From Escherichia phage BP9: a stretch of 64,000 bases of DNA. The notes beneath the pieces were generated by a model. That model was not told the DNA's origin. It ran no database searches and worked only from the letters and a program-made list of their open reading frames with translations. The stretch is taken from the sequence record PP488543.1. The stretch is one strand, 5' to 3'. A program made the position numbers and the translations under genes. Positions 8,893-54,935 of this stretch are shown piece by piece (the stretch's first letter is position 1; each line of letters starts with the position of its first letter).

Positions 8893-8893
8893 G

Positions 8894-21152: not shown

Positions 21153-21160
21153 CCTTTAAA

Positions 21161-21188: not shown

Positions 21189-21195
21189 GCTCAGA

Positions 21196-21224
21196 TTGAC
21201 TATTGTTACAAAATTTGGTAAAAT
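21196..21224 (+). promoter_or_regulatory. sigma70-type promoter with extended -10 (TTGACT-17 bp-TGgTAAAAT)
   Basis: -35 TTGACT at 21196-21201, -10 TAAAAT at 21219-21224, TG at -15/-14. Confidence 0.6.
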
Positions 21225-21257
21225 ACCTTGTAGAGATTTTCATACCGGAGGAGTGAC

Positions 21258-22748
21258 GTGGCTAAGTATGGATTGACAGAGGCTGGTTTCGTTATACCAA
21301 CCCTAAATGACCTAATCGTTGAAACTAAGCAAAGCCTGATCCGTGCTTTTGGCGAAAACTTCAACGTACAGAGTAACTCCGTTGCAGATAAGCTGACCAC
21401 TATCTTCAACGAGCGAGAGTATCAACTTATTCTTATGGCAGCATCTGTATACGCATCACAGACGCTGTATGGGGCAGAAGGTATTTACCTAGATGAGCTT
21501 CTTGGAAGACAGGGTATTTACCGAAGAGGCCGTTCTAAATCATCAGGTACCTGCCAGTTGACAATCAACACAACTGTGCCGTACAATATGATTTATGATT
21601 CCAAAACTTATACGCTGGACAGTGGCAACTTTGTTCTTAGCAACGATGTGCAAGTAGCAGGGAATCTTATTGCTCACAGAATAAATGCTCCAGACCTAAG
21701 GATTGGGAAATACAACTTCCAAATTACCAACCAGACAGATGGAAGTATCAAAACAAAAAGCCTGGTTTTAACAGATAAGTCTCTGGACTCTTCTGATTTG
21801 CCAAGCTTTTACGGAGAGATTAAGCAATTCATTGTCGATAATACAACCCTGTTGAACGACGATTTGATTCAGATCGATATGTTGACAGGGACGTTGTGGA
21901 TAGGGTACAATTCAAATCTTGATCAAGTTGGACTTAATAGCAGAGTAGATTTCAGAGTATCCCCGATTGTAGGGGAAAGAACTATCACACTGGATGTTAT
22001 CGCTAACGAGGCTGGTGAGCTGTCAAGAGAAGCAGAAACCGTGACAACAATGTCGCCTACTCCTAGTGGATTTATCAAGCTTACCAACCGAGAAAGATTC
22101 AATGAGGGCAGGGATGTTGAGAAAGACTCAGAGTATCGCTTAAGAGCTTCCAGCACAAAACAGTTAACATCGAAGGCTACCCGTCCTGCAATCCTTAGCG
22201 CTGTAAGCGAGGTAAAAGGTGTTGAGAAAGTGAGAGTGTTCTCCAACAACACCGATAAAACTGATGCTAAAGGTATACCTCCTTACAAGTTCCAAGTGGT
22301 TGTGTTTGGTGGTGCAACGGAGGACATTTGCCAAGCACTTTACCAAACTATAGCCTGTACGAACAGGACTTATGGTAATATTTTCTACGATATCACTACA
22401 TCTGACGGTCAAACTGAAAGAATTTATTACTCCAGGGCAAATACCTACCGCCTAGATGTAAGAATTACCTATTCCGGCGCTGCGCTTTCCACAACCGAAA
22501 AAGATGCCATTGTAGAGGCTCTTTTGCAGGTTGTTAACGGACTTGATGTTGCAGATACGTTGTACAATATCCAATTGGTCGGTGCTGCATCCGCTGCTGT
22601 GTCGATAGGTAGATTTAATAGACTGGTAATTCAAGTTAAACCAGTAGGAGCTTCTGATGAAGCTTACACGACAAACGATATTGTTGCGAACATGACCGAG
22701 GTGTTTGACCTCGACGAAAGTAATATAACTTTCCAACAAACTATTTAA
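21258..22748 (+). CDS. putative baseplate wedge protein (baseplate J / gp6-like)
   Basis: GTG start with GGAGG Shine-Dalgarno. N-terminus MAKYGLTEAGFVIPTLNDL...FGENFNV resembles the N-terminal pattern of baseplate J-family proteins as I recall it; downstream partner of a gpI-like position. Not verified. Confidence 0.4.
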   Translation: MAKYGLTEAGFVIPTLNDLIVETKQSLIRAFGENFNVQSNSVADKLTTIFNEREYQLILMAASVYASQTLYGAEGIYLDELLGRQGIYRRGRSKSSGTCQLTINTTVPYNMIYDSKTYTLDSGNFVLSNDVQVAGNLIAHRINAPDLRIGKYNFQITNQTDGSIKTKSLVLTDKSLDSSDLPSFYGEIKQFIVDNTTLLNDDLIQIDMLTGTLWIGYNSNLDQVGLNSRVDFRVSPIVGERTITLDVIANEAGELSREAETVTTMSPTPSGFIKLTNRERFNEGRDVEKDSEYRLRASSTKQLTSKATRPAILSAVSEVKGVEKVRVFSNNTDKTDAKGIPPYKFQVVVFGGATEDICQALYQTIACTNRTYGNIFYDITTSDGQTERIYYSRANTYRLDVRITYSGAALSTTEKDAIVEALLQVVNGLDVADTLYNIQLVGAASAAVSIGRFNRLVIQVKPVGASDEAYTTNDIVANMTEVFDLDESNITFQQTI

Positions 22749-22759
22749 GGCGGCGAGAT

Positions 22760-23446
22760 ATGGCAGAGATTAAGTCGGATGTTAACCACATCCACACTCT
22801 GCCAGATTTTGTTCAGGGAGGTCTTGACTACCTACCTGGAGATTTTCTGGCTGAGAAGGTTAATTTAGTCACATTCTTAACCGTATACCTTAAAAGGTTG
22901 GAGGATGTTGATAAGATGCTGGTAGGTTTGGCTGAAGGAAGATTGCTTAACAATGCCAGCGGAAGATACCTTGACGAAGTTGGTAATCAATTTGGTATTC
23001 TTAGGAATGGACTTTCAGATGCTGATTTTCGTGCCACACTAATTATTCAGCAGGCCGCAGCATCAAGGGGCGGGACTCGCGAAGATGTCATCTCCACCTT
23101 GCGACAATTGTTCGGAAGAGACAATTTCGATACGTGGAAAGGAGACAACTTCAGGTTTGACATAAATATTAGAAAAACTTGCTTTGACATATTGCAGTCT
23201 ATCGATCAGATCTTAGATATGCTACCATTGCCTTGTCATTTGCGTCTTACAGAATCGCAAGGGCAAGCTTTTGGTTTTGAAGGGGACTCTACAGCTCTTG
23301 GCTTCGGATCGGTGTGGGAAGAAAACCAATTCGGAGTTGGTGGGCTGGCTACTTTGCTGTATGTTCCTGACGTAAGACCTGATTGGGACACCACAACCAT
23401 TTATTGTGAAAGTATTACAGTAAACGCAACTAGACAGGAGGGTTAA
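22760..23446 (+). CDS. baseplate/fibre-associated protein of unknown function (gpI-like position)
   Basis: Position between the putative baseplate J gene and the first distal fibre gene; no motif recognised. Confidence 0.25.
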   Translation: MAEIKSDVNHIHTLPDFVQGGLDYLPGDFLAEKVNLVTFLTVYLKRLEDVDKMLVGLAEGRLLNNASGRYLDEVGNQFGILRNGLSDADFRATLIIQQAAASRGGTREDVISTLRQLFGRDNFDTWKGDNFRFDINIRKTCFDILQSIDQILDMLPLPCHLRLTESQGQAFGFEGDSTALGFGSVWEENQFGVGGLATLLYVPDVRPDWDTTTIYCESITVNATRQEG

Positions 23447-25518
23447 TGGCAACAGCTGTTTTTAAACCTTACCGTGATTACTCTACAATGGCTGCACAGT
23501 TTCATTACCGAACAGTTCAGGATACTGCCGTTCCTGGTAGGGATTATAATCATGTTGAGGGCGATGTAACTATCCCAATTGGGGCAACCAGTATTGAAAT
23601 CCCAGTGGAAATTGTTGACAAATTACCCAACAGGTTACCAAGAAGCTTCTTTATGGAGTTTTCATCAAAATCTCAAGGGGTGATGATTGGGACACAAAGG
23701 GCAAAATGTACAATAGTTTCAGATGAGAATCTTGACAGGATATCTTGGGATACTGTTGAGGAGAGAATGTTTCACCCAAGATATTGGGTTACAACCACCC
23801 AGCAGACTGAAAGTACCTGTATTGTTGCAGATGACAACTGTTGTATTAACCGTTTAGTGTCAAGAACATATGGGGGTATGGCTGGGTGCATTTGGGAAAC
23901 AGTTGACAAGTATGACCATTTCGGTATTGGGTTTGATGATCACTATGAGATGAGAAATACCAAGCTTTGGTTCAGAATGTCAATAACCAATGCCAGCAAC
24001 TTCTCCACTCCTGAAAAGATGATTATGACTGTAGACCTTGTTGATGGCACAATCATCTATGTTCCTTTAGCTCAATATGCTGTCAGCATCTCAGAGGATA
24101 AGAATGTTGCAGAAATTCATATTGATTTTGAGGACTGCGTCGGGATGGACCAGAACAACAACATGATGGGTGTTGATCCTCGGCAGGTGAGAAGGATTTT
24201 AATACCGCTCATGCCTAAAGACTGGGTAAGTAATAGCACAGACCCGAGAACGGAAAATGTAGAGTGCGAGTTGCGCTTAGACCTGCTTCAGCCAGACACA
24301 GGTTGGAAAATGATGCAACTTAACAATATTCAGGTTAAAGAGCACGACGTTGGGATCTGCACTGCATATGACGATATGTGGAACGTATCCCCTTTAAGGG
24401 TGTTGAACAATATCAAGCGTCTGGGCTATACCGGAACCATAAACCATTATGTTGGTATGAGTCATTATTATGACTACACGTGGTCAGGAACCCAATGGTC
24501 TATAAACAGAACAGGGGCGCTAAACGCTGCAGCTTATAAATGGCATGATGATTTTATGTACAATGCCAAACGACATAACTTCGACGTTATGCAGTCTGTA
24601 AGTTTTGAGCTTTACAGCGATGCCTGCCCGTTGGAATGGACCCAAAGAGACTGGAACGATAACTACGCTAAAACAGGGTATACACCTTGTAGCTACCTCC
24701 TGTCTCCAACCATTGAAGAGGGTATGAATTTCCTTACTGCAGTATTTAAGAATTTTGCATCAGCCGCTATGAGAAACAACCTGCCAGTGATTATGCAGGT
24801 TGGTGAACCGTGGTGGTGGTACAATACCGATACTCGTAGACCTTGTATTTATGATTACCCTACAAAACAGGCGTTTTATGATGAGACAGGCGAGTATGCA
24901 TTAGATATTGGGACTATTGACGATCCTAAAACTGGCGGTGTTTACGATAAGTATGTAGCATTTTGTCGTGGTAAGCTTGGCGCTCGTATTGCGGCTATTT
25001 CAAAGGCAATAAAGGCACACGCTGCATCAGCTCAGATGACAGCTCTGCTGTTTTTCCCAACCATTATGGAAACCGAGCTTACGCAAAAGCTTAACCTTGC
25101 TGACCAATATAAAAAGGAAGCAGGTGCTCTTGATTTCTTCTGCACCGAGTGCTACGATTGGGTGATGCAGGGAGGTATTGAAAAGGCAAAAGAGTCTGTA
25201 AACATACCTATCGTTAAGTTAGGTTGGCAACCGTCTGAAATACAATACCTTGCAGGGTTCGTTCCTAGCAAAGAGCTTGCTCCGGTATATGGCTACGACC
25301 CAACCAGGAATTACCAAGAATTCTTATGGAGATGTATCTGCGGAAACATGGCAACTATAGAGTATAGATACCCTGAGGTAAAACAGTATGTGTGGGCATA
25401 CCCGCAAGTAATGTCTGACAGCATTACTGTTACCGCTAGAGATTCTACCGTGCTTCATATGGGGCAGGTTGCTCTGAAAGGGTATGTAGAGGATGTTGTC
25501 CCGCCAGACTTCTCATAA
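23446..25518 (+). CDS. putative tailspike/depolymerase: N-terminal Calx-beta-like domain plus TIM-barrel glycoside-hydrolase-like domain (690 aa)
   Basis: N-terminal DYNHVEGDVTIPIGATSIEIPVEIVD resembles Calx-beta; central/C-terminal region has a GEPWWWY segment reminiscent of the NEP acid/base motif of clan GH-A hydrolases. Confidence 0.35.
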   Translation: MATAVFKPYRDYSTMAAQFHYRTVQDTAVPGRDYNHVEGDVTIPIGATSIEIPVEIVDKLPNRLPRSFFMEFSSKSQGVMIGTQRAKCTIVSDENLDRISWDTVEERMFHPRYWVTTTQQTESTCIVADDNCCINRLVSRTYGGMAGCIWETVDKYDHFGIGFDDHYEMRNTKLWFRMSITNASNFSTPEKMIMTVDLVDGTIIYVPLAQYAVSISEDKNVAEIHIDFEDCVGMDQNNNMMGVDPRQVRRILIPLMPKDWVSNSTDPRTENVECELRLDLLQPDTGWKMMQLNNIQVKEHDVGICTAYDDMWNVSPLRVLNNIKRLGYTGTINHYVGMSHYYDYTWSGTQWSINRTGALNAAAYKWHDDFMYNAKRHNFDVMQSVSFELYSDACPLEWTQRDWNDNYAKTGYTPCSYLLSPTIEEGMNFLTAVFKNFASAAMRNNLPVIMQVGEPWWWYNTDTRRPCIYDYPTKQAFYDETGEYALDIGTIDDPKTGGVYDKYVAFCRGKLGARIAAISKAIKAHAASAQMTALLFFPTIMETELTQKLNLADQYKKEAGALDFFCTECYDWVMQGGIEKAKESVNIPIVKLGWQPSEIQYLAGFVPSKELAPVYGYDPTRNYQEFLWRCICGNMATIEYRYPEVKQYVWAYPQVMSDSITVTARDSTVLHMGQVALKGYVEDVVPPDFS

Positions 25519-25530
25519 TCAGGAGATAAA

Positions 25531-26571
25531 ATGTCAAAACCTAGTTTTCCATTAGAGATTTGGGCAGAGGAGGATCAGGTTCTGCCTAACACCCACAGAC
25601 AGAACAGGCTACGCCCGATTGATGATTTGTGGAGAAAAGGTTGGGATCTTGGTCAAAAGCCCTCATGTGAAGAACTTAACTATATTTTCAATATGCTCGG
25701 AACTTGGGCAAAATACATTGCTGACGAGCAGATCCCCGCTCAAGAAGGCCGTTATCTGGTACGTGATAATAACTTGAGTGATCTTTTGAACATCCCTGTT
25801 GCCCGTAGAAACCTTGGGATTATTACCAAGGAAGAGGCAGACGCCAGGTATGTAAAAGTTACAGGTGATACAATGACAGGCCCGTTGGGTTTGCAACGTA
25901 TCAACTTTAAAGCTGCCGAGACAGATAAGGCTTGGATAGAGACAACTATTGGCCCAGATAAGACAACTCTCGACTTCGGGTTAAGTGATAATATTGGGTC
26001 GTTTGATGATGGTGGTACATCTACAGTAGATGCGTTTCGTTGGAGATTCCAGCCAACTCAGCCGGATATTAATCCAGAGTTCACTTTGATGTACCTTAAC
26101 GCGATCACGGCGAACCGTGCGCTGTTGAAAGTGGTAGGCAATGTTGAAGTTGTCGATAACATGAGGTGCAATAACCTTACTATCAGCAATACAGCAACAT
26201 TCACCAACTGTAATGTGGCTAGTCAGTTGACGGCCGGGTCAGTATATGTTAATGGTGGTGCAAGTTGTGACAGCATGGTTGTAAGAAGTCAGCACTGTGT
26301 TGTCGGTAACAGAAATGTGGTTCGCTCTGTGAACGGAGTGACGGCTAACGGTAACGGTGATGTAACGATCACTATCCCGCAGACAGGTGTGCAAGACATC
26401 AGAATCGGTGCAAGACTTGTTGACGGCGTTTCTGAATCTCCAATTCGCAACGGCTACGTTGTCACAGGCTGGCATTTCGGTGACAAAAAAGAGATGCGTG
26501 GTTCAACCTACTGGGCAGGACCTTTACAAAAACTTGTAAATGGTCAATGGATCACTGTTAATTATGCATAG
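25531..26571 (+). CDS. tail fibre protein with P2 gpH / Mu S-like C-terminal receptor-binding region
   Basis: C-terminus ...GWHFGDKKEMRGSTYWAGPLQKLVNGQWITVNYA parallels the P2 gpH end (...AGWHFYSQ...YINGTWYNVAQV); followed by a Tfa gene. Confidence 0.7.
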   Translation: MSKPSFPLEIWAEEDQVLPNTHRQNRLRPIDDLWRKGWDLGQKPSCEELNYIFNMLGTWAKYIADEQIPAQEGRYLVRDNNLSDLLNIPVARRNLGIITKEEADARYVKVTGDTMTGPLGLQRINFKAAETDKAWIETTIGPDKTTLDFGLSDNIGSFDDGGTSTVDAFRWRFQPTQPDINPEFTLMYLNAITANRALLKVVGNVEVVDNMRCNNLTISNTATFTNCNVASQLTAGSVYVNGGASCDSMVVRSQHCVVGNRNVVRSVNGVTANGNGDVTITIPQTGVQDIRIGARLVDGVSESPIRNGYVVTGWHFGDKKEMRGSTYWAGPLQKLVNGQWITVNYA

Positions 26572-26585
26572 ATCGGAGGACTAGC

Positions 26586-27170
26586 ATGAAAATACTTCAA
26601 GAGTTTAAACTTTACCAACCGGGATCTGGCGAATACCACGCCAACAAGGAAACCAAAGAGCTGACCCCTCAAGAGGTTGAGGATTACACCGCATACACTG
26701 GGTATTTTTTACGTAATGATGATGGCGATTGGTATGTGCAGTCACGAACATTACGACAAGAAAATCCGGGTTGTATCTTCCTACTTGTTGACGAGAAGGG
26801 AATTCTTAAGACATCTACAGAAGAACCTGATGCCTTATGGCCTGCTCCAGGTCTTCGTGTGGTTATCGCCAAAAAAGAAGAGGTACCAGAAAACATTATG
26901 CTTCACCACGACGCTTTGCGTTTAGTTGGTGATGAATTTGTCACAGATAATGAATTCTTTGTTCAACAGGCAGAGGGTGTCATAGAGACAGAACTTGCTT
27001 GGGCTACTGCTAGAATTGGTGCCTATCAAGACATGATTGACCTTGAATATGATCTTACTGATGACCAGAAACGTAACATCAGGGATTTGAAAATGTACAG
27101 GGTAAAACTTCTTGAAATAGATACATCTAAAGCCCCTGACATTTTCTTCCCGGAGCGACCTACCCTCTAA
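26586..27170 (+). CDS. tail fibre assembly chaperone (Tfa / P2 gpG-like)
   Basis: C-terminal block QKRNIRDLKMYRVKLLEIDTSKAPDIFFPERP matches the conserved Tfa terminus (..YR..L..VD...AP.I.WPEKP); immediately downstream of a fibre gene. Confidence 0.7.
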   Translation: MKILQEFKLYQPGSGEYHANKETKELTPQEVEDYTAYTGYFLRNDDGDWYVQSRTLRQENPGCIFLLVDEKGILKTSTEEPDALWPAPGLRVVIAKKEEVPENIMLHHDALRLVGDEFVTDNEFFVQQAEGVIETELAWATARIGAYQDMIDLEYDLTDDQKRNIRDLKMYRVKLLEIDTSKAPDIFFPERPTL

Positions 27171-27181
27171 GAGGAGGTGTT

Positions 27182-27496
27182 GTGGAGTTGGATTTGGCGG
27201 CATTGTACGGTATCTGCATGGGTACCGTTGTCCCGATCTGTGTATGGGCTTTCAACCAGTGGCACACCAAATGGAAAGGCATTTCCAAGAGGCTGGATGA
27301 ACTGGAGAAAGACCTCATCTTAGTGAAAAACAGTATGGTTACAAAAGATAAACTTGATTCCGTTATCGAGACCCGGTTAAGCAAGCTAGAGGCCGATATT
27401 AACGACCTTAAGCAGGATGTCAGGACAGATGTCTCCGGCATCAGAGCTGATGTACAAAAGATTTTGCACATGCTTGTAGAGCATAGTAAAAGGTAA
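27182..27496 (+). CDS. small N-terminally membrane-anchored coiled-coil protein (104 aa), function unknown
   Basis: GTG start after GAGGAGG; hydrophobic N-terminus LAALYGICMGTVVPICVWAF followed by heptad-rich sequence; architecture is i-spanin-like, but no partner lipoprotein was seen. Confidence 0.35.
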   Translation: MELDLAALYGICMGTVVPICVWAFNQWHTKWKGISKRLDELEKDLILVKNSMVTKDKLDSVIETRLSKLEADINDLKQDVRTDVSGIRADVQKILHMLVEHSKR

Positions 27497-27505
27497 ACAA
27501 AGGTC

Positions 27506-27540
27506 AGAACGGAAAGGACTCCGTTCTTGCATTTTGTTCT
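27506..27540 (+). terminator. rho-independent terminator
   Basis: agaacgg-aaaggact-ccgttct hairpin followed by a T-rich tract. Confidence 0.55.
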
Positions 27541-27555
27541 CTAAAGTGTTAAAAT
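27527..27555 (+). promoter_or_regulatory. sigma70-type promoter with extended -10 (TTGCAT-17 bp-TGtTAAAAT)
   Basis: -35 at 27527-27532 overlapping the terminator 3' arm; -10 TAAAAT at 27550-27555 with TG upstream. Confidence 0.5.
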
Positions 27556-27582
27556 AGTTCTAAGGAATTTTCTCAGGAGAAC

Positions 27583-28629
27583 GTGATGACTAAACCAGTT
27601 ATCCCTCTTGATATTTGGGCCAATCAGGATGTTGTGCTTGAAAATACGGGAGAGTTGAATAAATCTCAACCAAAAAAAGAAGAGAGATTGAAAGGTTGGG
27701 ATATGACACAAAGAATGGCATGTGAAGTTGTTAACTTTGAACTTCACATGCTTTCTGCGTGGTTGAAGCATTTAACAGAAGATGTTGTCCCTGGATGGGA
27801 TAATAGATTCTTAAGGGTCACTAATAATCTGGCAGACGTTCCAGACAAAGCTGCTGCACGTCAAGTTCTCAATGTATACTCGCCTGAAGAAATGGATGAC
27901 CTTTATGTTGACAAGACTGGAGACACAATGATCCAGACTCAAACTTTAGGTCTTCAAAGGATCGAGTTTGCATCTGCGTCAACAGACAATGCGGCGATAT
28001 ACACCACCATAACTCCAGACAAGACGATGATGGATTTCTGGATTATGGACAACATCGGTGGTGCTGACGGCACAGACCTTGATGACCCTTCTCACCAAAT
28101 AGACGGTTTCCGTTGGAGATTTCAACCTTCTGGTGGGCAGCCTGTGTTTTCGGCTATGAAGCTCAATGCTATAACTGCCAACCGTGCAAGACTGGCTATC
28201 CAAGGAAATCTTGAATGCAATGATGCAAAAAGCTCCTCTGCAAATGCTAATGCGGTAACGATACCAAGAGCCACTGTTAATGGGCAACAATCCTGCGGCA
28301 GCGCTCAAATAGGTGGAAGAGTAGATTGTAACGATAAAACCGCCAGGGGTCAATATGCAACAGTTGGTGGAAGAAACGTGGTCCGCAGGGTAAATGGTAG
28401 TAGCGCAGATAGCAGTGGTAACCTTACTATTCCTATGCCTAGTAGGGGTGTTGAAGATGTAAGGATAGCAAACCGTTTCAGAACCACCTATAGAGAATCA
28501 AGAGTATACCCTGGGCATGTAATGTGCTCCGGCAATTACGCCTATAAACACCCGTATCAGGGCGACTATTGGACTGGAGCTATTCAAAAATTTGTAAACG
28601 GTCAATGGATCACCATATCTTATGCTTAA
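27583..28629 (+). CDS. tail fibre protein, paralogue of 25531..26571 (P2 gpH-like C-terminus)
   Basis: Shared N-terminal (P(V/S)(I/F)PL(D/E)IWA..D.VL.NT) and C-terminal (YWTGAIQKFVNGQWITISYA) blocks with the upstream fibre; probable ATG start at 27586. Confidence 0.7.
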   Translation: MMTKPVIPLDIWANQDVVLENTGELNKSQPKKEERLKGWDMTQRMACEVVNFELHMLSAWLKHLTEDVVPGWDNRFLRVTNNLADVPDKAAARQVLNVYSPEEMDDLYVDKTGDTMIQTQTLGLQRIEFASASTDNAAIYTTITPDKTMMDFWIMDNIGGADGTDLDDPSHQIDGFRWRFQPSGGQPVFSAMKLNAITANRARLAIQGNLECNDAKSSSANANAVTIPRATVNGQQSCGSAQIGGRVDCNDKTARGQYATVGGRNVVRRVNGSSADSSGNLTIPMPSRGVEDVRIANRFRTTYRESRVYPGHVMCSGNYAYKHPYQGDYWTGAIQKFVNGQWITISYA

Positions 28630-28638
28630 AGAGGGTAA

Positions 28639-28905
28639 ATGAAATTAACTCAGTTTTTATGGGGACTGGTTGCAGCATCTGATGACCCTACAAAAGTGTC
28701 CCAATCTAAGCTATGGTCAAACATAGGCATGGCAGTGATGACTGGGGTGTTTATTCATATGGGGTACAATGATACGCTTCCTGAATGGTATGCGTGGATA
28801 TACGCACCTTCGGTAGCCTGCCCCCAGCTTATTAGCAAATTCATCTCGCTCCGGTGGGGTTGCCAGCACCCTGACCACGTTAAAAACGAAGAGCAAAAAG
28901 CTTAA
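28639..28905 (+). CDS. small putative membrane protein (88 aa), function unknown
   Basis: Hydrophobic segment LWSNIGMAVMTGVFIHMGY and charged C-terminus; occupies the position where a Tfa would be expected but lacks Tfa motifs. Confidence 0.3.
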   Translation: MKLTQFLWGLVAASDDPTKVSQSKLWSNIGMAVMTGVFIHMGYNDTLPEWYAWIYAPSVACPQLISKFISLRWGCQHPDHVKNEEQKA

Positions 28906-28914
28906 GGAGAAATC

Positions 28915-30660
28915 ATGGCGCAAGACATGACAAGCTTCGAGCAGGCGGTAGATCAAGTAATTGTTGATTCTGAACGTTTGCACTTGATTGTCAACGGTAA
29001 CGCTGTGGATGAAGTTGTCGTAGAGGATGGGACCACTATCCCTACGGTACGAAAAGCCATGCTTGACACCCTTTATTTTAAAACGCCACCAATCCCTTGG
29101 GCGTATGGTGCATCCACAACAGTTTTTAACCAGTTGTATGAGTTTAAAGGGGATACAGGCACTCAGTGGTGGTACGCCCCAGCAGCATCAAAATCTAACC
29201 CAGTTAGGATGCCAGCAGATCCTTCACAATCTCCGAACTGGAGATTATATACAGATTCTGCAGTAATGGCAAAATACTACGCAAAACTTAACAGCCCAAG
29301 GTTCGAAGGTGATCCGAGAGCACCTACACCTCCAATGGACGATAAGTCCGAGTCTATAGCAAACACAGAGTTTGTTGTTGACTATGTGGATAGTATATTC
29401 AAAGCCATGGAGGGGATGAAAGTAACTGTAGGGTCTTTGGTAGTGAAAGGTCTTACAGAACTGGCTAACACCATAGTTGGTGGCACCCTTACCATACACG
29501 GGCCTGTTAATGGGGCTGATTCTACTGCACGCTTCAGGAACCTAATCCTTACTGCAAATACTTCTACACTAACTTTTGCGTGGAGCGATCCTAAGCATGC
29601 AGACTGGAGAAGCACAGAGCTGCAACCTCATGAAGTGGTCACCCACAGAGTTATAGCTGACACTATAACTTCTGGGAAACCAGTGGCTAATAACAACGAT
29701 GTGCATTTTGATGGTCTAGGTAATAACTTTTTTGACTACGTGTACATTCGTGGTAATGCCATGAAGGCAGCAACCGAACCGACATTGCAGGTTGATGGGA
29801 CCACCAGGGTTAAGAACCTTGAGGTGACAGGCACCGTTACAGGGATAACCTACTCTGTGGATGGCACCATGATCTACCCTAGCTATATTGAAAGCACAGG
29901 GGATGCACTGATCAATGGGGATTTAGAGGTTGGCGGATCTATAGTCATTCGTGGCACAGCATCTGTTCAGAACATATCTTTAAATACTCTGAGGGTGAAT
30001 GAGCGTGCCACTTTTGAAGGGGAAGGGCTTACTGCCAACAAAGGTGTGATTACCGAGCTGACAGCCACCACTCTAACTGCAACAACTGCAAACTCTGAAA
30101 ACTGCAACGTTACCCGCAACTTGCAGGTAAATGGAGATGTTAGTTTAAACGCAGCAGGTACGGGTACCACCTCTGTTCACAACCTTGAAATATCTGGCAC
30201 GGTGACTGGGTGGCTGCCAGACTTCTCTAATGTCAACTTTGTCTGCAACGGCATTAACTCTAGTGGTAAGATAACCACCTCTCAAGAAATTGAGGCTGGT
30301 AAAACTATTACTGCCCCTACTTTCCACGCAGGGAAGGTAGATTTTGATCTAGAGGAGGTTGACGCATCAGGTGGGACATGGACACCTAACGGGCAGGCCA
30401 GCATGTATGTTGTCCACGCGAAAGGGGATTTTACAATAGGCCAATGGCCTGGAACATCGGCTGAAGATAAACCTTACCCGTTTACTGCAATCATCTATGT
30501 CATTCAAGATGCTGTAGGCCACAACGTGACTTTGCACGATAAATATGCCATACTGTCGGCTACCCCTGTCATTAACAACAAAGCCAACAGCGTTACCTTG
30601 CTACAATTGACATATTGTGGTGTTGGTGATATTGTGGATGTGGTTATTGCACAACGTTAA
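28915..30660 (+). CDS. tail fibre protein (581 aa) with conserved fibre collar motif
   Basis: Motif APTPPMDDKSESIANTEFV matches the widespread fibre shaft motif (for example lambda Stf PTAPTALRGTNNTQIANTAFV); C-terminal region Thr/Gly/Asn-rich and beta-like. Confidence 0.6.
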   Translation: MAQDMTSFEQAVDQVIVDSERLHLIVNGNAVDEVVVEDGTTIPTVRKAMLDTLYFKTPPIPWAYGASTTVFNQLYEFKGDTGTQWWYAPAASKSNPVRMPADPSQSPNWRLYTDSAVMAKYYAKLNSPRFEGDPRAPTPPMDDKSESIANTEFVVDYVDSIFKAMEGMKVTVGSLVVKGLTELANTIVGGTLTIHGPVNGADSTARFRNLILTANTSTLTFAWSDPKHADWRSTELQPHEVVTHRVIADTITSGKPVANNNDVHFDGLGNNFFDYVYIRGNAMKAATEPTLQVDGTTRVKNLEVTGTVTGITYSVDGTMIYPSYIESTGDALINGDLEVGGSIVIRGTASVQNISLNTLRVNERATFEGEGLTANKGVITELTATTLTATTANSENCNVTRNLQVNGDVSLNAAGTGTTSVHNLEISGTVTGWLPDFSNVNFVCNGINSSGKITTSQEIEAGKTITAPTFHAGKVDFDLEEVDASGGTWTPNGQASMYVVHAKGDFTIGQWPGTSAEDKPYPFTAIIYVIQDAVGHNVTLHDKYAILSATPVINNKANSVTLLQLTYCGVGDIVDVVIAQR

Positions 30661-30668
30661 TATATCTG

Positions 30669-30694
30669 ACCGCTCCTGACGGGGCGGTTTTCTT
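30669..30694 (+). terminator. rho-independent terminator
   Basis: ccgctcc-tgac-ggggcgg hairpin followed by ttttctt. Confidence 0.6.
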
Positions 30695-30708
30695 ATCTGG
30701 AGAACACA

Positions 30709-33700
30709 ATGCTTCCAATCCCTTTGCTAAAACTTGGTCGTCATTTCCTCGATAAGAGGGGTGGAGTTAAGGAACTTGCTGTTCTGTCATACCCAATAGA
30801 CAACAGTGACGGTACAAGCACTACAGTAGCCTATGTAAATAGTTTAGCTATACTTTTTGACGACGGTCAACTTAATATTACAGGGTACAACAGGTTCGGG
30901 GAGTGTAGGACTGGGGATCTTGACACGATAAACTACCCTAATGAGGCTGCCTGGAACGTTGATCATGTGTGGAGAGCAGATCGTGCGTTTGTGATCCGAA
31001 CTTTTGATAATCAGTTTTTCTACATCGGCTGTACTGCAGGGCTTATTGGGTCTGATGCTGCAGGCGGTAATGATGTTTGTGTAAGGGAGTGGACACCTCT
31101 TCCTGAACAAATCGTTAAAGGATTGCACCTTGACACCCACCCAGAGCGCCTTGTTGAGGTGATGGGTGGTATTAACAACACCGTCTGGGTTATGGCAGAG
31201 GCAGAAGGTACTGGCATTTTACACCTGTACGGATCTGGTAACAACACCTACGGATCTTTGCATGTGGATAAAAACCAGCATGCAACTCCTGTAAAGATTG
31301 GTGAAACATCGGAAAATCCTGAAACAGGTCCTTGGAAAAACCCAAGCATCAACTGTGAGGTGCATGATAACTCTGTTATTTTCGGCGGTCCTAAAGGTTT
31401 CTGGATTGCGGGATACGACTTTCTGAGAAACAACAGTAGAAACGACCTTGTTTGGCCTCCTGCTCAGATTACTCGTGACGATTTGAGAGGTATTCCTGCA
31501 GATGAGGAGTGGAAAGGGTTCATGTGTGGTCCGAACGGGGCAGTGGTTGTAACACAAAGAATGCACAGACCTGATGACCAGCAACTTGTTAACGTATTCT
31601 ACGGGCAAAACATCTGGGGAGATGATACATGGCGTTCCTTAAATCTTACCTACACCCATGAAGTAATAATGGCGCGTGGGTACGGAACAAGCGGCATTTT
31701 CTTCAATAATGGCACTAAGCAGTACCGTGGATTCTCTCGCAACTTATGTAATGATATTGGTGCACAGTCTGCAAACAATAGCCCTAGGGATAATTTTATC
31801 CACTATCAAGCCCTTGCTACAGCTAAATATGTTGAGCAAAGACTGCCAGTCAGCTGGACAGAGAGTGTTTATTTCCAAGGCATTCACAGAGAAGGTTTTT
31901 TAGGAACTTTTACCGTTGTTAATGGTAAACTTTGGTGGTCAGGTATCCCAAGGGGAAGTTTTGCAGGCTCTAATAACCTGTTTGGCGGCAGACTTAATAG
32001 CCAAGGGTTCACGGAGGTCCCTGAGAATTGGTATAAAAATGTCCCAGTAGATAGTTGGGGTGTTGATGATATTTTCGACGTTAACGGTGTTAGCAGCGTT
32101 AGCAATATCTACATTGGCGACACGGTCAAGATGAAATTGAAGCCTCAGCCAGAGGGGGCTACGTTCATTATTGACAAGATTGAACTGGTAAATGCTGCAG
32201 GTACGGTTGTTACAGATGCAAATTACCAATTCTCTACCAACTGGAACCACGGCGGGGCCAACGAAGTTATTGTTACCCAGTATAACAGGAATGTTAACAG
32301 ACGTGGACTGTACTCCGTAAAAATAACCTATCATGACAAACATGGCACAGGCAGGACCCACACAACAAGGACTTTGAACTGGAACACTATTGTCCCTGCG
32401 TATCCGTCTGATGGTAAATGGCATACTGTCGGTAGAAACAAACAGTTCCATGTTAATGACACTGTATACTTTGGACTAAATGCGGCCCAGCCTGCAGTAG
32501 AAGGGGATACATCGTATATGGTCAGACTCCATAGAATGGATGCTGGGTCAGTAACCTATGATGTTACCCAAGAGATTTATAATCAGCGACGAAATACCTA
32601 TGATAACTTGGTGCAGACACAGGCCCTATGGGAGTTCAACCCAAACGGAAGGGGTGGTAAAATGTTGCAGGTCAACGAACAAAACGGGACATCGTTGACT
32701 GTTCACGAACACCCAAACCCTTGGCCTGATCCTGGAAAACCTAACTCTGGTGCTCGTACACTAAAAATTGTCAGCCATGACGTAGGATATTTCGGAATAC
32801 GCTGGGAAGCCACAGTAAGATATGCCGACGGGACAACAAACAATATAGGGATTACCCTTGGTGGCACCAGTGAGAATAACTCGCTGAAAATTGCCTACAC
32901 TCCTAGAGGTATTTCTATTGATAATATGGATGTTGTTCGCAACGGTTACGGGGATGTGAACATCAAAGTTACTCTTGGTGAACATCTTGGCGGGGAAAGG
33001 ATCATCATGTATGCCTTTGATCATGACCCTCGCACCAACGGAACATATGCAGACCAGGCGTGGAGCTACCTGATAAGCGCACCTGAGCCAAATACCAAAG
33101 AATTCTACTACGGTATGAAGCGAGATGTGTGCAAGAAAACAGGGACACATGACTGGATTGCGATCTGTGTTAAAGATGAACGTACCGCTTGGAACGAGCC
33201 TGTTAACAGATGGTTCATAGGTATTCCCACCCGAAGTGATAAATACGTTGAAGAATACATTGTGTGCATGGGCGGCACCAACCTTAATATGTGTTGGAAC
33301 GGGGATGCAAACAACAAATACTCTGATTATGACTATATGCGGGACTATTCTTGCAATCAGTGGTTTAACCAACCTGGATATGCTGATCGACAGGCAAGAG
33401 TGAATCCTGCAATCTTTACAGATACGCAGGTTTTCTTGACAAAACAGGCCAACGAGGTTCAGACCTTCAAGAACAAATACGACCCTAACAAGTGGTTTTA
33501 TAACTGTTATGGCGCATTTTTCTGGGGTCCTGGGGAACTACCTGGCGGGGGATCTTGCTTCGAGTCTGCAACTTACGCCAGTGACTACATCATGGGGCAG
33601 GTTAAGAAGTATAAGATAATCCCCGGCCCTGAAACTTTGGGCAATGCCGTTGACCCTTATATCGTCATGACTGCGCTGAGATCAAACATGGATGGGACAT

Positions 33701-36345
33701 CCATGTCTATGCAAATCCCAGTAACAAATGGGTACAAACGTGTTGTAATGATCATTAAGTGCGACCTAATAGGTAAACAAGTTCTTGCGGAAAACGGTAC
33801 CTCCACACATCCTTTTGAGATCGCTCTACACTATCAGTTTGCTGACTCGCCTTTTGCAGGTGATAAGAGAATATCTGATACAGATACACAGCGTTGTAAG
33901 AAGGTGTTGTTAGGTGCAGGTTGGTGGTGGTATGAATTTGATTTAACAGACAAATTCACCGACACGTCAAAAGTTGTAACGGGTCTTCGCCTAGACCTTG
34001 GCGAGAACATGCATAAAGCTGTTTGTGATGGCACCTATGGTGATCCTACAGTATATCTAAAGTATGTCTCTTTTGAGCATCCGGAAGATGTTGTTTACGG
34101 TCCAAAACTGAGATTGTTTGGCAGTTGGATTGCAAAAGACAGGGTAGGCATGGGTAAAAAGGTAAGAGGGTTCTTAGTTGATGCAGGAACAGAGGACATG
34201 CTGGTTAATGCAGTATGGCCTGAATTGCCCGGCACTCAGTGGGATAACTCTGCCAAATCTATAAACTGGTTCAACATTCACAGGGCTATGTGGACCACTA
34301 ACTGCTACTTGTGGAGAGAGCTTAACGATCAGGCTTTTGGCTTCAGCAACGGCAGAAGGATGGCAATCATTTGCTGGACAACGCTGCAAAGGTGCTATGA
34401 CCATGACTACGAGATTGGCGGTAGGGCATGGAAAAATATCAGGGATAGAATCATAACCAATTTTGCAGACGACAACGGAGGTGGAGCACATAACTTCGGC
34501 ACAAGTAGACTTATTCACTTGAATGGGTCATCTGCATATAAGAAAGAGGGTTATTCTGGGTCTATGATCGAGTGGGGTCTGGTGAAAGATGCTCGCGTAT
34601 TGATGGGTCAACAACTTGCTGCTGCAATAGGACCTAACGCAGTGCAGTCTGTTAAACCAGCGTGGTTCGATATCCCAATATGGTCATCTGGAACACCAGG
34701 AACTGCGGCAATCAACCCTACCACTGGGGATCTGGAAATCTCTTGGGAGGACTTAAAGCAGGTTGGTGGCTGGGATAAGACTGGGTACCAAGTGCAATGG
34801 TGGAGATCTGACGGATCGTTAGCGGCTGATGAGTTTGTTAAGGACAATTTCTACACTATGTCCTCTGCAAAAGCACAGCAATTGTTTGGTCAAGCAACTC
34901 CGTCAACGATCACTATGTCTATGTGCTGTAAAGATACCAGGACTGGAGCTCTGGGGCCAAGGGTTGCTAAAGTTTTCTCAGGTATTAAGTGGAATCTTCC
35001 TGTTCAAAGTGTTTCATGGAAGCAAATAGGTGATAACAAGCTACTGGTTACTCCTGCCTGCCAGTTCAACGCAACTCTCAACGTTGACCCAGCTGTTGCA
35101 GCAAACTCGGCTAGAGCTTCTGACTTCTCTGTGTCTAACACTGCCATGGCAGATGTGAGAAAGATTGACACACTGAATGCCAGAATTACCTGTAAAAACA
35201 CTTATGGCACATTCCAGATCATCAACAACTTTACAGATGTTGATTCTAAGGCAGTGAGGACAGCCAGCCAGACTATGCAGTTAGGCACTCTGGCATACTC
35301 TGCACTGATCACTGAACAGTCTCCTACCCTTCAGGGTGGGGGTGTTGGTAAGTTGATTACAACTCCTGTATGGAAGCCAAATGAGTGGGTTGTATTCGAT
35401 TTGACTGTGGACTTCTCCAGTGATAATAACTGGACATGGGTAAGGAATTGTTTGTCACAGCTGATGGGTGGCCCAAACTCCATTAGTGATAGCCATGACT
35501 CTACTGACCCGAGTGTGTTCCAGGTTGGTAAAACTCACCCAGAAACTGGGGCACAGTTGCCTGACAGGAAGTATGCTTTGGTTTGCATCTCCAACGGCAA
35601 GGCAGATGTAACCTTCTCAGGGACACACACATATAACGGCACTTACAACTTCTCTAAAAAGTACAGCCTCAAGGCAGGTAACATTGTAGACGAGGTTGGT
35701 GCGTTGTATAATCCGGGAAACGGGATAGGGATTGTAGGTGGTAAACTGCAGATGCAGGAACCTTCTATTACCCCTTCCAATGTGCCAGGAATCAGAAAGA
35801 CTTGGGAAAGTAGTAATACCAACATTGCAACAGTGGATGCCACCACAGGATTGGTAACATTTAAAGCTACTGGGAATGTCACCATAAAGTTTGTAGTTAC
35901 AGATGATGCAGGGCGCAAAACGTCTTCAACATCTTTTACTGTCAAACAGATGGCACCGCAGTGGAGAATGTGGATAGGTACAGCAACAAACGGGGCATAC
36001 CCTAATCCGGCAGGTACTTCTGGTATGAAGACTTTCTCTACAAGCAAACCGATGGAGTACGGCAGCGGTCCTAAGGTAGGGCAGATGGTGTACTTTGGTG
36101 CGTATATTCCTGAAATTATAGGGCTTCCGAGAAGTCAGCTTCAGTTGCTGTTTGGGGCTGGTGTTGACGATCTTGCCACTTTCGGGTATAGCGACAACAT
36201 CGAGGCTGCAAGGAGTTCAGGATGGGTAGGGTTCAGAATGGAGTCTGGAAAGGAAGGCAGGATTCTAGGGACAGCCTCTATAGGTGTTATGTTCCCTGGT
36301 GACCAGCAGTATCGTCTAGAAGCCTACGCAACCTTTTCTCGTTAA
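30709..36345 (+). CDS. giant virion-associated protein (1878 aa) with N-terminal RCC1-like beta-propeller repeats and a C-terminal Big_2 Ig-like domain
   Basis: RCC1-like repeats (ITGYNRFGECRTGD, YGSGNNTYGSLH); Big_2-like segment VPGIRKTWESSNTNIATVDATTGLVTFKATGNVTIKFVVTDDAGRKTSSTSFTV; last gene of the fibre cluster before a bidirectional terminator. Confidence 0.5.
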   Translation: MLPIPLLKLGRHFLDKRGGVKELAVLSYPIDNSDGTSTTVAYVNSLAILFDDGQLNITGYNRFGECRTGDLDTINYPNEAAWNVDHVWRADRAFVIRTFDNQFFYIGCTAGLIGSDAAGGNDVCVREWTPLPEQIVKGLHLDTHPERLVEVMGGINNTVWVMAEAEGTGILHLYGSGNNTYGSLHVDKNQHATPVKIGETSENPETGPWKNPSINCEVHDNSVIFGGPKGFWIAGYDFLRNNSRNDLVWPPAQITRDDLRGIPADEEWKGFMCGPNGAVVVTQRMHRPDDQQLVNVFYGQNIWGDDTWRSLNLTYTHEVIMARGYGTSGIFFNNGTKQYRGFSRNLCNDIGAQSANNSPRDNFIHYQALATAKYVEQRLPVSWTESVYFQGIHREGFLGTFTVVNGKLWWSGIPRGSFAGSNNLFGGRLNSQGFTEVPENWYKNVPVDSWGVDDIFDVNGVSSVSNIYIGDTVKMKLKPQPEGATFIIDKIELVNAAGTVVTDANYQFSTNWNHGGANEVIVTQYNRNVNRRGLYSVKITYHDKHGTGRTHTTRTLNWNTIVPAYPSDGKWHTVGRNKQFHVNDTVYFGLNAAQPAVEGDTSYMVRLHRMDAGSVTYDVTQEIYNQRRNTYDNLVQTQALWEFNPNGRGGKMLQVNEQNGTSLTVHEHPNPWPDPGKPNSGARTLKIVSHDVGYFGIRWEATVRYADGTTNNIGITLGGTSENNSLKIAYTPRGISIDNMDVVRNGYGDVNIKVTLGEHLGGERIIMYAFDHDPRTNGTYADQAWSYLISAPEPNTKEFYYGMKRDVCKKTGTHDWIAICVKDERTAWNEPVNRWFIGIPTRSDKYVEEYIVCMGGTNLNMCWNGDANNKYSDYDYMRDYSCNQWFNQPGYADRQARVNPAIFTDTQVFLTKQANEVQTFKNKYDPNKWFYNCYGAFFWGPGELPGGGSCFESATYASDYIMGQVKKYKIIPGPETLGNAVDPYIVMTALRSNMDGTSMSMQIPVTNGYKRVVMIIKCDLIGKQVLAENGTSTHPFEIALHYQFADSPFAGDKRISDTDTQRCKKVLLGAGWWWYEFDLTDKFTDTSKVVTGLRLDLGENMHKAVCDGTYGDPTVYLKYVSFEHPEDVVYGPKLRLFGSWIAKDRVGMGKKVRGFLVDAGTEDMLVNAVWPELPGTQWDNSAKSINWFNIHRAMWTTNCYLWRELNDQAFGFSNGRRMAIICWTTLQRCYDHDYEIGGRAWKNIRDRIITNFADDNGGGAHNFGTSRLIHLNGSSAYKKEGYSGSMIEWGLVKDARVLMGQQLAAAIGPNAVQSVKPAWFDIPIWSSGTPGTAAINPTTGDLEISWEDLKQVGGWDKTGYQVQWWRSDGSLAADEFVKDNFYTMSSAKAQQLFGQATPSTITMSMCCKDTRTGALGPRVAKVFSGIKWNLPVQSVSWKQIGDNKLLVTPACQFNATLNVDPAVAANSARASDFSVSNTAMADVRKIDTLNARITCKNTYGTFQIINNFTDVDSKAVRTASQTMQLGTLAYSALITEQSPTLQGGGVGKLITTPVWKPNEWVVFDLTVDFSSDNNWTWVRNCLSQLMGGPNSISDSHDSTDPSVFQVGKTHPETGAQLPDRKYALVCISNGKADVTFSGTHTYNGTYNFSKKYSLKAGNIVDEVGALYNPGNGIGIVGGKLQMQEPSITPSNVPGIRKTWESSNTNIATVDATTGLVTFKATGNVTIKFVVTDDAGRKTSSTSFTVKQMAPQWRMWIGTATNGAYPNPAGTSGMKTFSTSKPMEYGSGPKVGQMVYFGAYIPEIIGLPRSQLQLLFGAGVDDLATFGYSDNIEAARSSGWVGFRMESGKEGRILGTASIGVMFPGDQQYRLEAYATFSR

Positions 36346-36354
36346 CAAGGGGTA

Positions 36355-36389
36355 AATAAAAAGGGGCCGTTTGGCCCCTTTCTTTTTAT
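36355..36389. terminator. bidirectional intrinsic terminator between convergent gene blocks
   Basis: aggggcc-gttt-ggcccct hairpin flanked by an A-run upstream and a T-run downstream; lies between the 36345 stop (+) and the 36392 stop (-). Confidence 0.75.
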
Positions 36390-36391
36390 AG

Positions 36392-36592
36392 TTAGTAATA
36401 CTCCCAACATGCCCCATCTTCAGACGGCTTGACGCGCTTACCTTTATGGTCAACATAGGTATAGCCACAACCTTCACAAATAACAGGTGCTGCATAGCCT
36501 TCCTTCCACTGATCCTCAGTGATCAGACCTTCCAAATCTTTGCAGTCAAAGCCAAACAACTCTTCAGAGCAATCTTTACAAAAATCAGCCAT
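36392..36592 (-). CDS. small zinc-ribbon protein (66 aa)
   Basis: Two CxxC pairs (CKDC ... CEGC). Confidence 0.4.
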   Translation of the reverse strand: MADFCKDCSEELFGFDCKDLEGLITEDQWKEGYAAPVICEGCGYTYVDHKGKRVKPSEDGACWEYY

Positions 36593-36595
36593 TTC

Positions 36596-37042
36596 TCAGT
36601 CCTCGCATTTAACAAATTTTTCTACAGATCCACCAAGCACAGCTTGTTGTTTGATGGCACTTTCTTCATCATAGTGGATAGACTTATGTTCCGTACCTCC
36701 AAACTTACCTGTGTGGAAGGTGTGCACCCAAATCTCTTTAGGAAGGGATTTATTCTCTTCTTCCACCAACTCCCACATTCCCCATAAGTGATCTGTGATA
36801 TCTCTGATGAAATATCCCTCGCCGAGGTTTGTATTCACACTATAAGCTGATTCGTGATTTCCACAAATATAACGGAAGGCTGTGTACTCTTTACCTGGTG
36901 TGAAGTGAGTGTCCATTAGTATAGCTGTTAAAGAATAAGGGTCTCGAAAGCCCAAGAACTTTAGTTTAACAATTTCGACATTTACATCTGCAAGATTGTT
37001 CATGACGATCTCCTCTGTTTGGTTGGTGAGATAATCATACAT
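36596..37042 (-). CDS. hypothetical protein (148 aa)
   Basis: ORF tightly packed in the minus-strand block; contains a GNHE tetrapeptide but no other phosphoesterase motifs. Confidence 0.35.
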   Translation of the reverse strand: MYDYLTNQTEEIVMNNLADVNVEIVKLKFLGFRDPYSLTAILMDTHFTPGKEYTAFRYICGNHESAYSVNTNLGEGYFIRDITDHLWGMWELVEEENKSLPKEIWVHTFHTGKFGGTEHKSIHYDEESAIKQQAVLGGSVEKFVKCED

Positions 37043-37167
37043 AGATCTGATGTTGGAGTCAAGCTTAATTTTAAACGATTTTGGGGAGGTATTTTGTTCA
37101 GGAGGGTAATCACATAGGGTAGGACAATTTATGAAGGCACAGGCCTCGTTTGAGGCCTTAAAATCGA

Positions 37168-37548
37168 TTATGACACTTTGACGTAACGCTCTGACAGAGC
37201 TGGAAAGCCAAAAGCAGTACCTATACTACCGTATGCTACCCACCATTGAAGTTCATCGTGACACCATTTTCCGATCAGGAAGGTGCTGGGGTAGCGGGTC
37301 AGTATTTTGGCATAAGCTTTAGGGTCTGCATCTTCTGGGATAATGATACTTGGAACATCTTTGTTATGACCACAGCAGCAGTTTAGAGTTTTCAATCCTG
37401 CCGCCCATAGACTCATGATAGGCTTAGCCATGCACTTATCAAGGCACACACGTTTTTTGCCGTCACGGAGCTTTTTAGGCACATCAACGATAACATTTTG
37501 ATGCTTGGCACCTTTCACTTTCCAATTATAGGATTTACACTTGCACAT
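37168..37548 (-). CDS. Cys-rich hypothetical protein (126 aa)
   Basis: Multiple Cys/His (CKCK, CLDKC, CCCGH, WCH), probably metal-binding; family not recognised. Confidence 0.35.
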   Translation of the reverse strand: MCKCKSYNWKVKGAKHQNVIVDVPKKLRDGKKRVCLDKCMAKPIMSLWAAGLKTLNCCCGHNKDVPSIIIPEDADPKAYAKILTRYPSTFLIGKWCHDELQWWVAYGSIGTAFGFPALSERYVKVS

Positions 37549-54933: not shown

Positions 54934-54935
54934 TT

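Follow-up and report, generated by a model that had tools for sequence, protein, structure and literature searches.

The idea that one contractile-tailed phage carries many host-recognition proteins, and the gene cluster that encodes them, are already known from phi92, rV5, LL12 and the BASEL phages. On the baseplate of the myovirus phi92 (Justusliebigvirus; Schwarzer et al. 2012, cited in PMC8594841; cryo-electron microscopy (cryo-EM), PMC13450770) there are several sets of fibres and spikes, reported as co-expressed (PMC8594841). The Vequintavirinae have three sets of lateral fibres and two paralogous short fibres homologous to Mu S/U, an arrangement for which the BASEL term is "nanosized Swiss army knife" (PMC8594841). 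All tested members depend on the NGR glycan as a shared primary receptor (PMC8669472), and LL12, with seven predicted fibres, depends on the GlcI residue of lipopolysaccharide (LPS) (PMC7229145). In rV5, virion mass spectrometry detected gp30, 32, 33, 34, 37, 41, 42 and 43 (PMC3606486). Phages of this type are common candidates for therapy and biocontrol directed at pathogenic E. coli, and the cluster determines what they adsorb to. Here we examine its counterpart in Escherichia phage BP9 (PP488543.1), in a window of 64,000 nucleotides (nt) where an earlier note had described five consecutive fibre or spike genes at positions 23446–36345.

Comparison with other phage genomes identifies positions 1–50699 of the window as the genome of an rV5-like myophage (Vequintavirus) and positions 23446–36345 as the usual multi-fibre host-recognition cluster of rV5-like E. 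coli phages, which is highly conserved and whose genes are real. A megablast search of the latter interval against the phage collection matched 124 records, 107 of which span at least 80% of it at 90–96% identity; nearly all are E. coli Vequintavirus, and the preceding 23.4 kb gives a like pattern of matches. In more than 100 phages the alignment is collinear, with 94–96% of nucleotides identical. All five long plus-strand open reading frames lie exactly where the note had placed them, and the two genes before them are baseplate genes, as it had said (Table 1). The products of the window pair one-to-one with rV5 gp27–gp43 in size and order, and we use the rV5 names below. Published rV5 sizes are 1878, 581, 88, 347 and 104 residues for gp27–gp31 and 194, 346, 690, 228 and 496 residues for gp32–gp36 (PMC3606486 Table S3). 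Gene content and order are the same in the annotated regions of EmilHeitz (Bas49), rV5_ev146, YN3 and rV5, and the order is kept even in the distant relative L006, whose gp27 is only 45% identical. Two short-fibre paralogues with a single Tfa chaperone between them, flanked by gp34-type and gp28/gp27-type genes, are found here as in those four phages and in L006. This arrangement, the collinearity and identity, and the late-promoter motif at the rV5 positions P036 and P030 place the interval in the Vequintavirus tail-fibre locus. Gene order and sizes, late promoters P036 and P030 and terminators t028 and t027 are shared by rV5, EmilHeitz/Bas49, YN3, FV3, Murica and LL12. The window differs from rV5 and other Vequintavirus only in alleles of the known variable genes, in a frameshift in gp39 and in a chimeric contig end, the last two of which are probably sequence-quality issues.

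Conservation at the protein level is similarly high. Identity to relatives is 99–100% for gp34, gp33, gp32, gp31 and gp29, 96–98.6% for gp30, ∼98% for gp28 and 93–97% for gp27, and within 23446–36345 identity to rV5 is 93–100%. The set is therefore not exceptional in its lineage, as "exceptionally large" had implied; the locus is conserved across the genus. The clearly variable genes lie only upstream, namely gp41 (86%–92% identical to relatives) and gp37 (81% to rV5, 99.5% to YN3), which is the same pattern as that reported for the BASEL phages, where allelic variation is restricted to the three largest genes (PMC8594841). The locus in the window is thus one more near-identical copy of a cluster whose multivalency, dependence on NGR and the LPS core, and paralogous short fibres have been published. 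We are highly confident that this is the host-recognition locus of an rV5-like myophage, conserved and expressed late, and that its products assemble at the periphery of the baseplate and are displayed at the same time, not in alternation. The present analysis supplies the gene content, homologies, motifs and conservation, while receptor assignments, assembly positions and expression levels are taken from the literature and from reasoning.

Table 1. Features of the host-recognition locus and its surroundings in the window (gene names follow rV5)
Feature	Position	Strand	Basis or remark
Upstream fibre module (gp43, gp42, gp41)	8224–15340	+	Pfam and PHROG
gp42, tail protein, 865 aa	8894–11491		PHROG tail family
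gp41, 1270 aa	11528–15340		Tail_spike_N and C-terminal S74 intramolecular chaperone; PHROG tail family
Siphovirus-like tail-tip module	15440–21152	+	gp40 Dit-like "distal tail protein", gp39 tail protein, gp38 DUF6950, gp37 J-like
gp37, J-like fibre, 1381 aa	17007–21152	+	lambda-J-like; Ig_J, Ig_J_second, Phage_Tail_Tip; PHROG tail family; variable allele
Late-promoter motif TGGTAAAATA (rV5 P036)	21216–21225	+	Heads unit gp36 to gp31; identical to rV5 P036 in Table S4
gp36 orthologue, baseplate wedge protein	21258–22748	+	Pfam Baseplate_J; PHROG baseplate wedge subunit; 99% identical to rV5
gp35 orthologue, baseplate protein	22760–23446	+	phrog_4056 "baseplate protein", E = 3.4e-103; 99.6% identical to rV5
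gp34 orthologue, 690 aa	23446–25518	+	Calx-beta, NCTSP_N, N4-sheath-type TIM barrel
gp33 orthologue, short tail fibre 1, 346 aa	25531–26571	+	phrog_4465 tail fibre, E = 8.9e-172; 99.7% identical to rV5 gp33
gp32 orthologue, tail fibre assembly chaperone	26586–27170	+	Pfam Caudo_TAP, E = 8.4e-12; phrog_136, E = 2.1e-36
gp31 orthologue, 104 aa	27182–27496	+	N-terminal hydrophobic segment, then coiled coil; phrog_5345
Putative terminator-like hairpin between gp31 and gp30	27506–27527	+	Weak T-run
Late-promoter motif TGTTAAAATA (rV5 P030)	27547–27556	+	Before second short-fibre gene; surroundings as rV5 P030 (Table S4) except for one base
gp30 orthologue, short tail fibre 2	27583–28629	+	phrog_4465, E = 2.8e-164; 96.5% identical to rV5 gp30
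gp29 orthologue, 88 aa	28639–28905	+	phrog_1322 "membrane protein", E = 2.7e-32; RefSeq rV5 annotation concurs
gp28 orthologue, lateral/long tail fibre of phiTE gp241 type, 581 aa	28915–30660	+	PDB 9cuy_g; phrog_4549
Intrinsic terminator (rV5 t028)	30668–30689	+	Directly upstream of gp27; in rV5 Table S4
gp27 orthologue, putative adhesin/fibre, 1878 aa	30709–36345	+	Beta-rich conserved N-terminal part, variable C-terminal Ig-like array
Bidirectional terminator (rV5 t027/t026)	36360–36381	.	End of late structural unit

The first of the five products, gp34, matches two Pfam families above cut-off, PF23845 (TIM-barrel_NCTSP; E = 1.9e-79, 267.7 bits) and PF23844 (NCTSP_N; E = 8.5e-13, 48.4 bits; cut-off 27), and a Calx-beta domain with a score exactly at cut-off (27.0 bits). 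Its barrel matches the structure of N4 Gp64 (9lc0_M; E = 3.3e-24). The motif GMSHY, found at residue 337 (window position 24454) and nowhere else in the six-frame translation of the window, is described as a perfectly conserved, NGR-specific feature of Vequintavirus, Justusliebigvirus and N4 that lies within a deacetylase-like domain (bioRxiv 10.64898/2026.04.02.716166). In rV5, gp34 is entered as "structural protein (MS evidence)" (PMC3606486). gp34 probably binds the primary receptor, the NGR glycan. It had been described as Calx-beta plus GH-like (glycoside hydrolase-like) depolymerase. The Calx-beta domain, at cut-off, and the TIM barrel are present; the enzymatic label fits less well, the fold being the TIM barrel of the N4 non-contractile sheath, described in the literature as deacetylase-like. 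A check for catalytic domains found only this NCTSP-family barrel in gp34 and no Pfam or PDB match in gp42. On its domain matches, gp34 is better stated as an N4-sheath-type, deacetylase-like TIM-barrel protein that probably binds NGR. In N4, a podovirus, gp64/gp65 surround the tail as a six-fold sheath and gate its plug (PMC13434306), whereas here the domain belongs to a 690-residue protein that also has a Calx-beta domain and comes from a phage with a contractile tail. With tail sheath and tube genes listed upstream in the rV5 table, this phage is a myovirus, which makes a sheath-like quaternary role for gp34 unlikely and leaves the homology as one between domains.

Both short tail fibres have a phiTE-like N terminus and a Mu-S-like tip. 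Residues 1–108 of gp33 match the solved short tail fibre of phiTE (9cuy_c; E = 1.4e-19) and residues 286–343 match residues 440–501 of Mu fibre protein S (5yvq; E = 1.7e-6), while a Pfam scan of gp33 at E ≤ 1 found little. As had been proposed, gp33 and gp30 (346 and 348 residues) are paralogous, with 43% identity over their full length (E = 7e-96; the published value for the rV5 pair is 42.3%). An alignment of the two genes had been suggested as a way to map a variable receptor-binding segment. When run, it revealed no single swapped segment; divergence is spread along the whole protein, with 27%–63% identity per 30-residue block. The program-derived reading frame of gp30 begins at GTG 27583, and relatives annotate an ATG one codon downstream. 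From this comparison, the true start is likely to be ATG 27586, which would give 347 residues as in rV5 gp30.

In phiTE (Certrevirus, Vequintavirinae; PDB 9cuy/9mjn), the matching N-terminal part is the one that docks on the wedge; the match does not extend to the distal parts that bind the receptor. The short fibre of this flagellotropic phage has 554 residues with immunoglobulin (Ig)-like domains, in contrast to the ∼346 residues and Mu-S-like tip of the fibres here. With Mu S/U and P2 H/G the locus shares the tip, homologous to Mu S, and a Caudo_TAP chaperone gene directly 3′ of the first paralogue, and the BASEL study reports the same homology of short fibres to Mu S/U (PMC8594841). It differs from those systems in that there is no invertible segment or alternative C-terminal cassette, the second paralogue lacks a chaperone gene of its own, and the N-terminal two-thirds is unrelated to Mu S or P2 H. 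The neighbors of the paralogues are as the note had them: a Tfa chaperone follows the first, and the second is followed by a small protein that both PHROGs and RefSeq call a membrane protein. The hydrophobicity of this 88-residue product, gp29, is only moderate, and no chaperone match was found for it in Pfam or PHROG. A further small gene, gp31, had been left out. It is located after the chaperone gene and before the second fibre gene, and its product reaches a maximal Kyte-Doolittle 19-residue mean of 1.9 at residues 3–24; the rV5 gene table assigns it "1 TMD" (PMC3606486).

gp28 is a long-fibre protein of the phiTE gp241 type. Residues 8–325 match the N-terminal half of the phiTE "putative tail fiber protein" (PDB 9cuy_g; E = 5.8e-76), the long fibre whose N terminus has been modelled on the baseplate (PMC11972413), and the orthologue in L006 bears the Pfam domains Phage_phiTE_241_N and _C. 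The N terminus of phi92 gp150 is also a weak match to this type of fibre (PMC7229145). The collar motif attributed to gp28 was not found: Pfam Collar (PF07484) gives no match at E ≤ 0.01 or E ≤ 1, and the sequence has no W..CDG or LPDLR motif, the sole fibre motif present being the widespread ...SIANTEFV... near residue 160. At E ≤ 1, Pfam returns a sub-threshold bactofilin-like (beta-helix) match.

The order of promoters and terminators indicates how these genes would be transcribed. A sigma-70 scan of 21000–37500 gave 35 sites where 30.4 are expected by chance; because this is uninformative, we used the late-promoter motif of the phage itself. The motif TGNTAAAATA fits the late-promoter consensus of rV5, TggTAaAAtA, to which no late sigma factor or activator encoded by the phage has been assigned (PMC3606486). 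Exact copies number five in the window, every one on the plus strand, against 0.73 expected. They lie at 1246, 15262, 15400, 21216 and 27547; four are just upstream of genes, and the copy at 15262 is inside the 3′ end of the gp41 gene. In L006, exact copies occur at both of the same intergenic sites, that corresponding to P030 being at 6816, before a gene at 6854. Each short-fibre paralogue had been placed behind its own promoter. This holds for the second, which has the motif at 27547, and fails for the first, where the gp34–gp33 spacer (25518–25531) is 12 nt long and contains no copy of the motif. Transcription would thus run from P036 through gp36–gp31 and restart at P030 for gp30–gp28, with gp27 reached solely by read-through of t028.

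The largest product, gp27, is the least typical. Pfam scans of six overlapping segments detect Big_2 at residues 1686–1733 and, at 44–199, a weak RCC1-like match far below cut-off. The PHROG matches of gp27 are 11922, "tail protein", at residues 38–197 and, in the C-terminal part, 215, "structural protein with Ig domain", a family filed under head and packaging. Among 5.8 billion proteins searched, homologues form only 15 clusters, all of them full-length orthologues in Vequintavirus-like contigs, with the N-terminal ∼76% of the length conserved and the C terminus variable; the search gave no informative distant relatives, and the remotest homologue (45% identity) occupies the same syntenic position. 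AlphaFold2 was run on residues 1–700 and 1101–1878, each with a 16-sequence alignment. The N-terminal model, mostly beta, was too poor for structure search and was not used. The C-terminal model contains confident chained beta-sandwiches at about residues 1330–1760, and Foldseek retrieved for it only generic tandem Ig, cadherin, S-layer and adhesin matches with low TM-scores. The model supports a beads-on-a-string array of beta-sandwiches in the C-terminal part and nothing more specific. The gene sits behind terminator t028 without a promoter motif of its own, from which we infer low expression by read-through.

Going by published genetics on close relatives, adsorption would most likely proceed in steps. 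gp34, through its GMSHY-containing TIM barrel, would engage the NGR exopolysaccharide as primary receptor and allow passage of the O-antigen layer. The short fibres gp33 and gp30, pointing downward, would next attach to the outer core of LPS and set off contraction; their N-terminal part, of the phiTE/phi92 gp147 type, would dock on the wedge, and their Mu-S/P2-H-type tip would be folded by the Tfa chaperone gp32. gp28, gp27, the gp43/gp42/gp41 module and the J-like gp37 may add glycan-binding or adhesin functions, and the variable genes gp41, gp37 and gp27 are the probable strain-specific determinants. phi92 offers the nearest precedent. Its fibre III is gp147, the short-fibre homologue, and rearrangement of this fibre triggers contraction (PMC13450770); the published phi92 orthologues are gp147 for the short fibre, gp142 for gp34 (NGR domain) and gp141 for gp42 (PMC7229145). 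phi92 differs in having a single short-fibre gene, the endosialidase gp143 and the colanic-acid spike gp150; rV5-like phages encode two short-fibre paralogues and no endosialidase (PMC8594841, PMC7229145). The proposal that many co-encoded host-recognition proteins go with broad host recognition agrees with the published view, in which the phi92 assembly is a "multivalent adsorption apparatus" (PMC8594841, PMC7229145). Profile searches likewise left standing the proposal that these are virion proteins, since for each product there is either an assignment to a PHROG tail family or a virion homologue known from a solved structure or from proteomics.

Several points weigh against this picture. 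The receptor roles are transferred from relatives rather than obtained from this phage, and enzymatic activity of gp34 and of gp42 is unproven. Only three fibre types near the baseplate have been resolved by cryo-EM in phi92, Bas49 and Bas54 (PMC13450770, PMC12143355, PMC8594841). For gp27, the virion evidence is weak and the virion location unproven: mass spectrometry of rV5 covered 3.1% of the protein through non-tryptic peptides, a level matched by the non-structural rIIA (rV5 proteomics Table S5), and the AlphaFold2 models are of low confidence (pLDDT 47 for residues 1–700 and 58 for 1101–1878).

The count of "seven or more distinct host-recognition proteins" agrees with that published for LL12; read as independent specificities it probably overcounts, given the three sets of fibres per baseplate seen by cryo-EM. 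Several of the products are probably subunits of composite fibres. It is a serious possibility, if not the one we expect, that the products are the anchors, shafts, branches and tips of three composite lateral fibres and one short-fibre set, with about three or four specificities instead of seven or more, and that the phage is effectively bivalent (NGR and LPS core) on ordinary E. coli. phi92 shows only three fibre densities per wedge (PMC13450770), and Bas49 and Bas54 have three fibres for nine annotated fibre proteins (PMC12143355). K-12 genetics points to only two receptors, the NGR glycan and the LPS outer-core glucose (PMC8669472, PMC7229145), and the BASEL study notes that such phages would be "effectively monovalent on E. 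coli K-12" (PMC8594841). Both gp43 and gp41 carry the Tail_spike_N anchor typical of branched tailspike assemblies, and most of the locus is 97–100% conserved, hence not tracking host variation. However, different products carry different domains of binding or enzymatic type (the TIM barrel of the NCTSP family, the Mu-S, J-type and S74-matured tips, and the Ig arrays), and flexible distal fibres may conceal further appendages at low cryo-EM resolution. Another rival to co-display of the products, our preferred reading, is a switchable host range, in which the two short-fibre paralogues or other fibre genes would be expressed alternately, by inversion as in the Mu G-segment or P1 C-segment or by mutagenesis through a diversity-generating retroelement, to give subpopulations of virions. 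The homology of the fibres to Mu S with a U/Tfa-type chaperone and the tandem paralogues, the second with its own promoter motif, speak for such a switch, and yet we regard it as highly improbable. Both paralogues are complete genes with their own N termini in the same orientation, their divergence extends over the whole length rather than being restricted to a swapped tip, and virions of rV5 were found to contain both proteins (PMC3606486). None of the relatives examined departs from this arrangement. No inverted repeat of at least 20 nt flanks the paralogues or occurs round the other fibre genes, and no template-variable repeat pair was found, recombinases and reverse transcriptases not having been profile-searched; direct repeats between the paralogues are only short conserved coding stretches.

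The position of gp27 in this apparatus can be questioned separately. The fibre run might end at gp28, with gp27 either a low-copy decoration or adhesin elsewhere on the particle (head, neck or sheath) or a non-virion protein; we consider this unlikely. Its gene follows an intrinsic terminator and has no promoter motif, its proteomic evidence is negligible, the PHROG matched by its C-terminal part belongs to a head and packaging category, and its make-up, a densely conserved beta-rich N terminus with a weak RCC1-like match followed by Ig beads, is unlike that of trimeric fibres. Against this, gp27 is always the last gene of the tail-fibre operon, distant relatives included, and part of its N-terminal region matches a tail-protein family. 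A conserved N terminus with a variable C terminus is the usual pattern of receptor-binding proteins, and the BASEL study annotates gp27 as a lateral tail fibre with moderate allelic variation (PMC8594841). We also advance, as a tentative and rather doubtful idea, that gp27 is a non-trimeric, low-copy giant adhesin made only by terminator read-through, in which a conserved, possibly RCC1/beta-propeller-like N-terminal domain carries a variable Ig-like chain. It could be the "fiber II"-type density of rV5/phi92-like phages, or a decoration with affinity for mucus or some other surface.

Upstream of the baseplate genes lie two further modules. The J-like, S74-chaperone and 865-residue genes that had been counted with the receptor-binding set exist, and each falls in a PHROG tail family. 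In the fibre module, gp43 (222 residues) is a Tail_spike_N anchor protein and has in common with gp41 an N-terminal domain that is 38% identical between the two; gp42 has no Pfam match, including in a scan of its two halves. The second module is a tail-tip set of siphovirus type in a contractile-tailed phage, flanked by two fibre modules and preceding the Baseplate_J wedge gene. The rV5 annotation already shows this set, with similarity to Yersinia phage PY54. gp37 contains a repeat family (D1, 19296–19958) of five diverged copies (60%–80% identity) of a 60-nt unit, 132–186 nt apart, in a region that Pfam scores as an apolipoprotein-like coiled coil. The protein has 1381 residues here and in YN3, 1279 in rV5 and EmilHeitz and 1199 in rV5_ev146, and gain or loss of repeats may set the length of the fibre among relatives. 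In the gene for gp39, a conserved tail protein, an A4 run at ∼16066 (window 16031–16140) is one base shorter than in EmilHeitz and YN3 (AAA for AAAA), which shifts the frame of the first ∼12 codons, so that the longest reading frame starts at GTG 16136 and encodes 148 rather than 183 residues. The frameshift is probably a homopolymer sequencing error.

The end of the window is of a different origin. Homology to rV5-like phages stops at 50699 inside rIIB, which has 299 residues here and 401 in relatives. Positions 50687–51067 read in reverse as the left arm of IS2, whose terminal repeat abuts 51068. From 51067 the sequence is 99–100% identical to prophage DNA of the E. coli chromosome, and from 51575 it is ∼96% identical to the temperate phage phiV10 (holin, endolysin and Rz lysis genes, integrase, recET, repressor and replication genes). 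GC content climbs from ∼0.44 to ∼0.50 in this chimeric part (50687–64000). Because rIIB is joined to an internal position of IS2, and ∼13 nt are claimed by both flanking alignments, the join is more likely an assembly artefact, combining reads of a lytic phage with those of a host prophage, than a real recombinant. We considered whether the host-recognition locus is itself affected by the chimera at 50.7 kb and rejected this, positions 1–36345 being collinear in one piece with many complete genomes. Between 16 and 18 unannotated "Campylobacter phage" records (host Campylobacter jejuni; e.g., MG065662.1 and MG065672.1) are also ∼96% identical over the full length of positions 1–36345. Judged by this identity, they look like mislabelled or contaminated database records.

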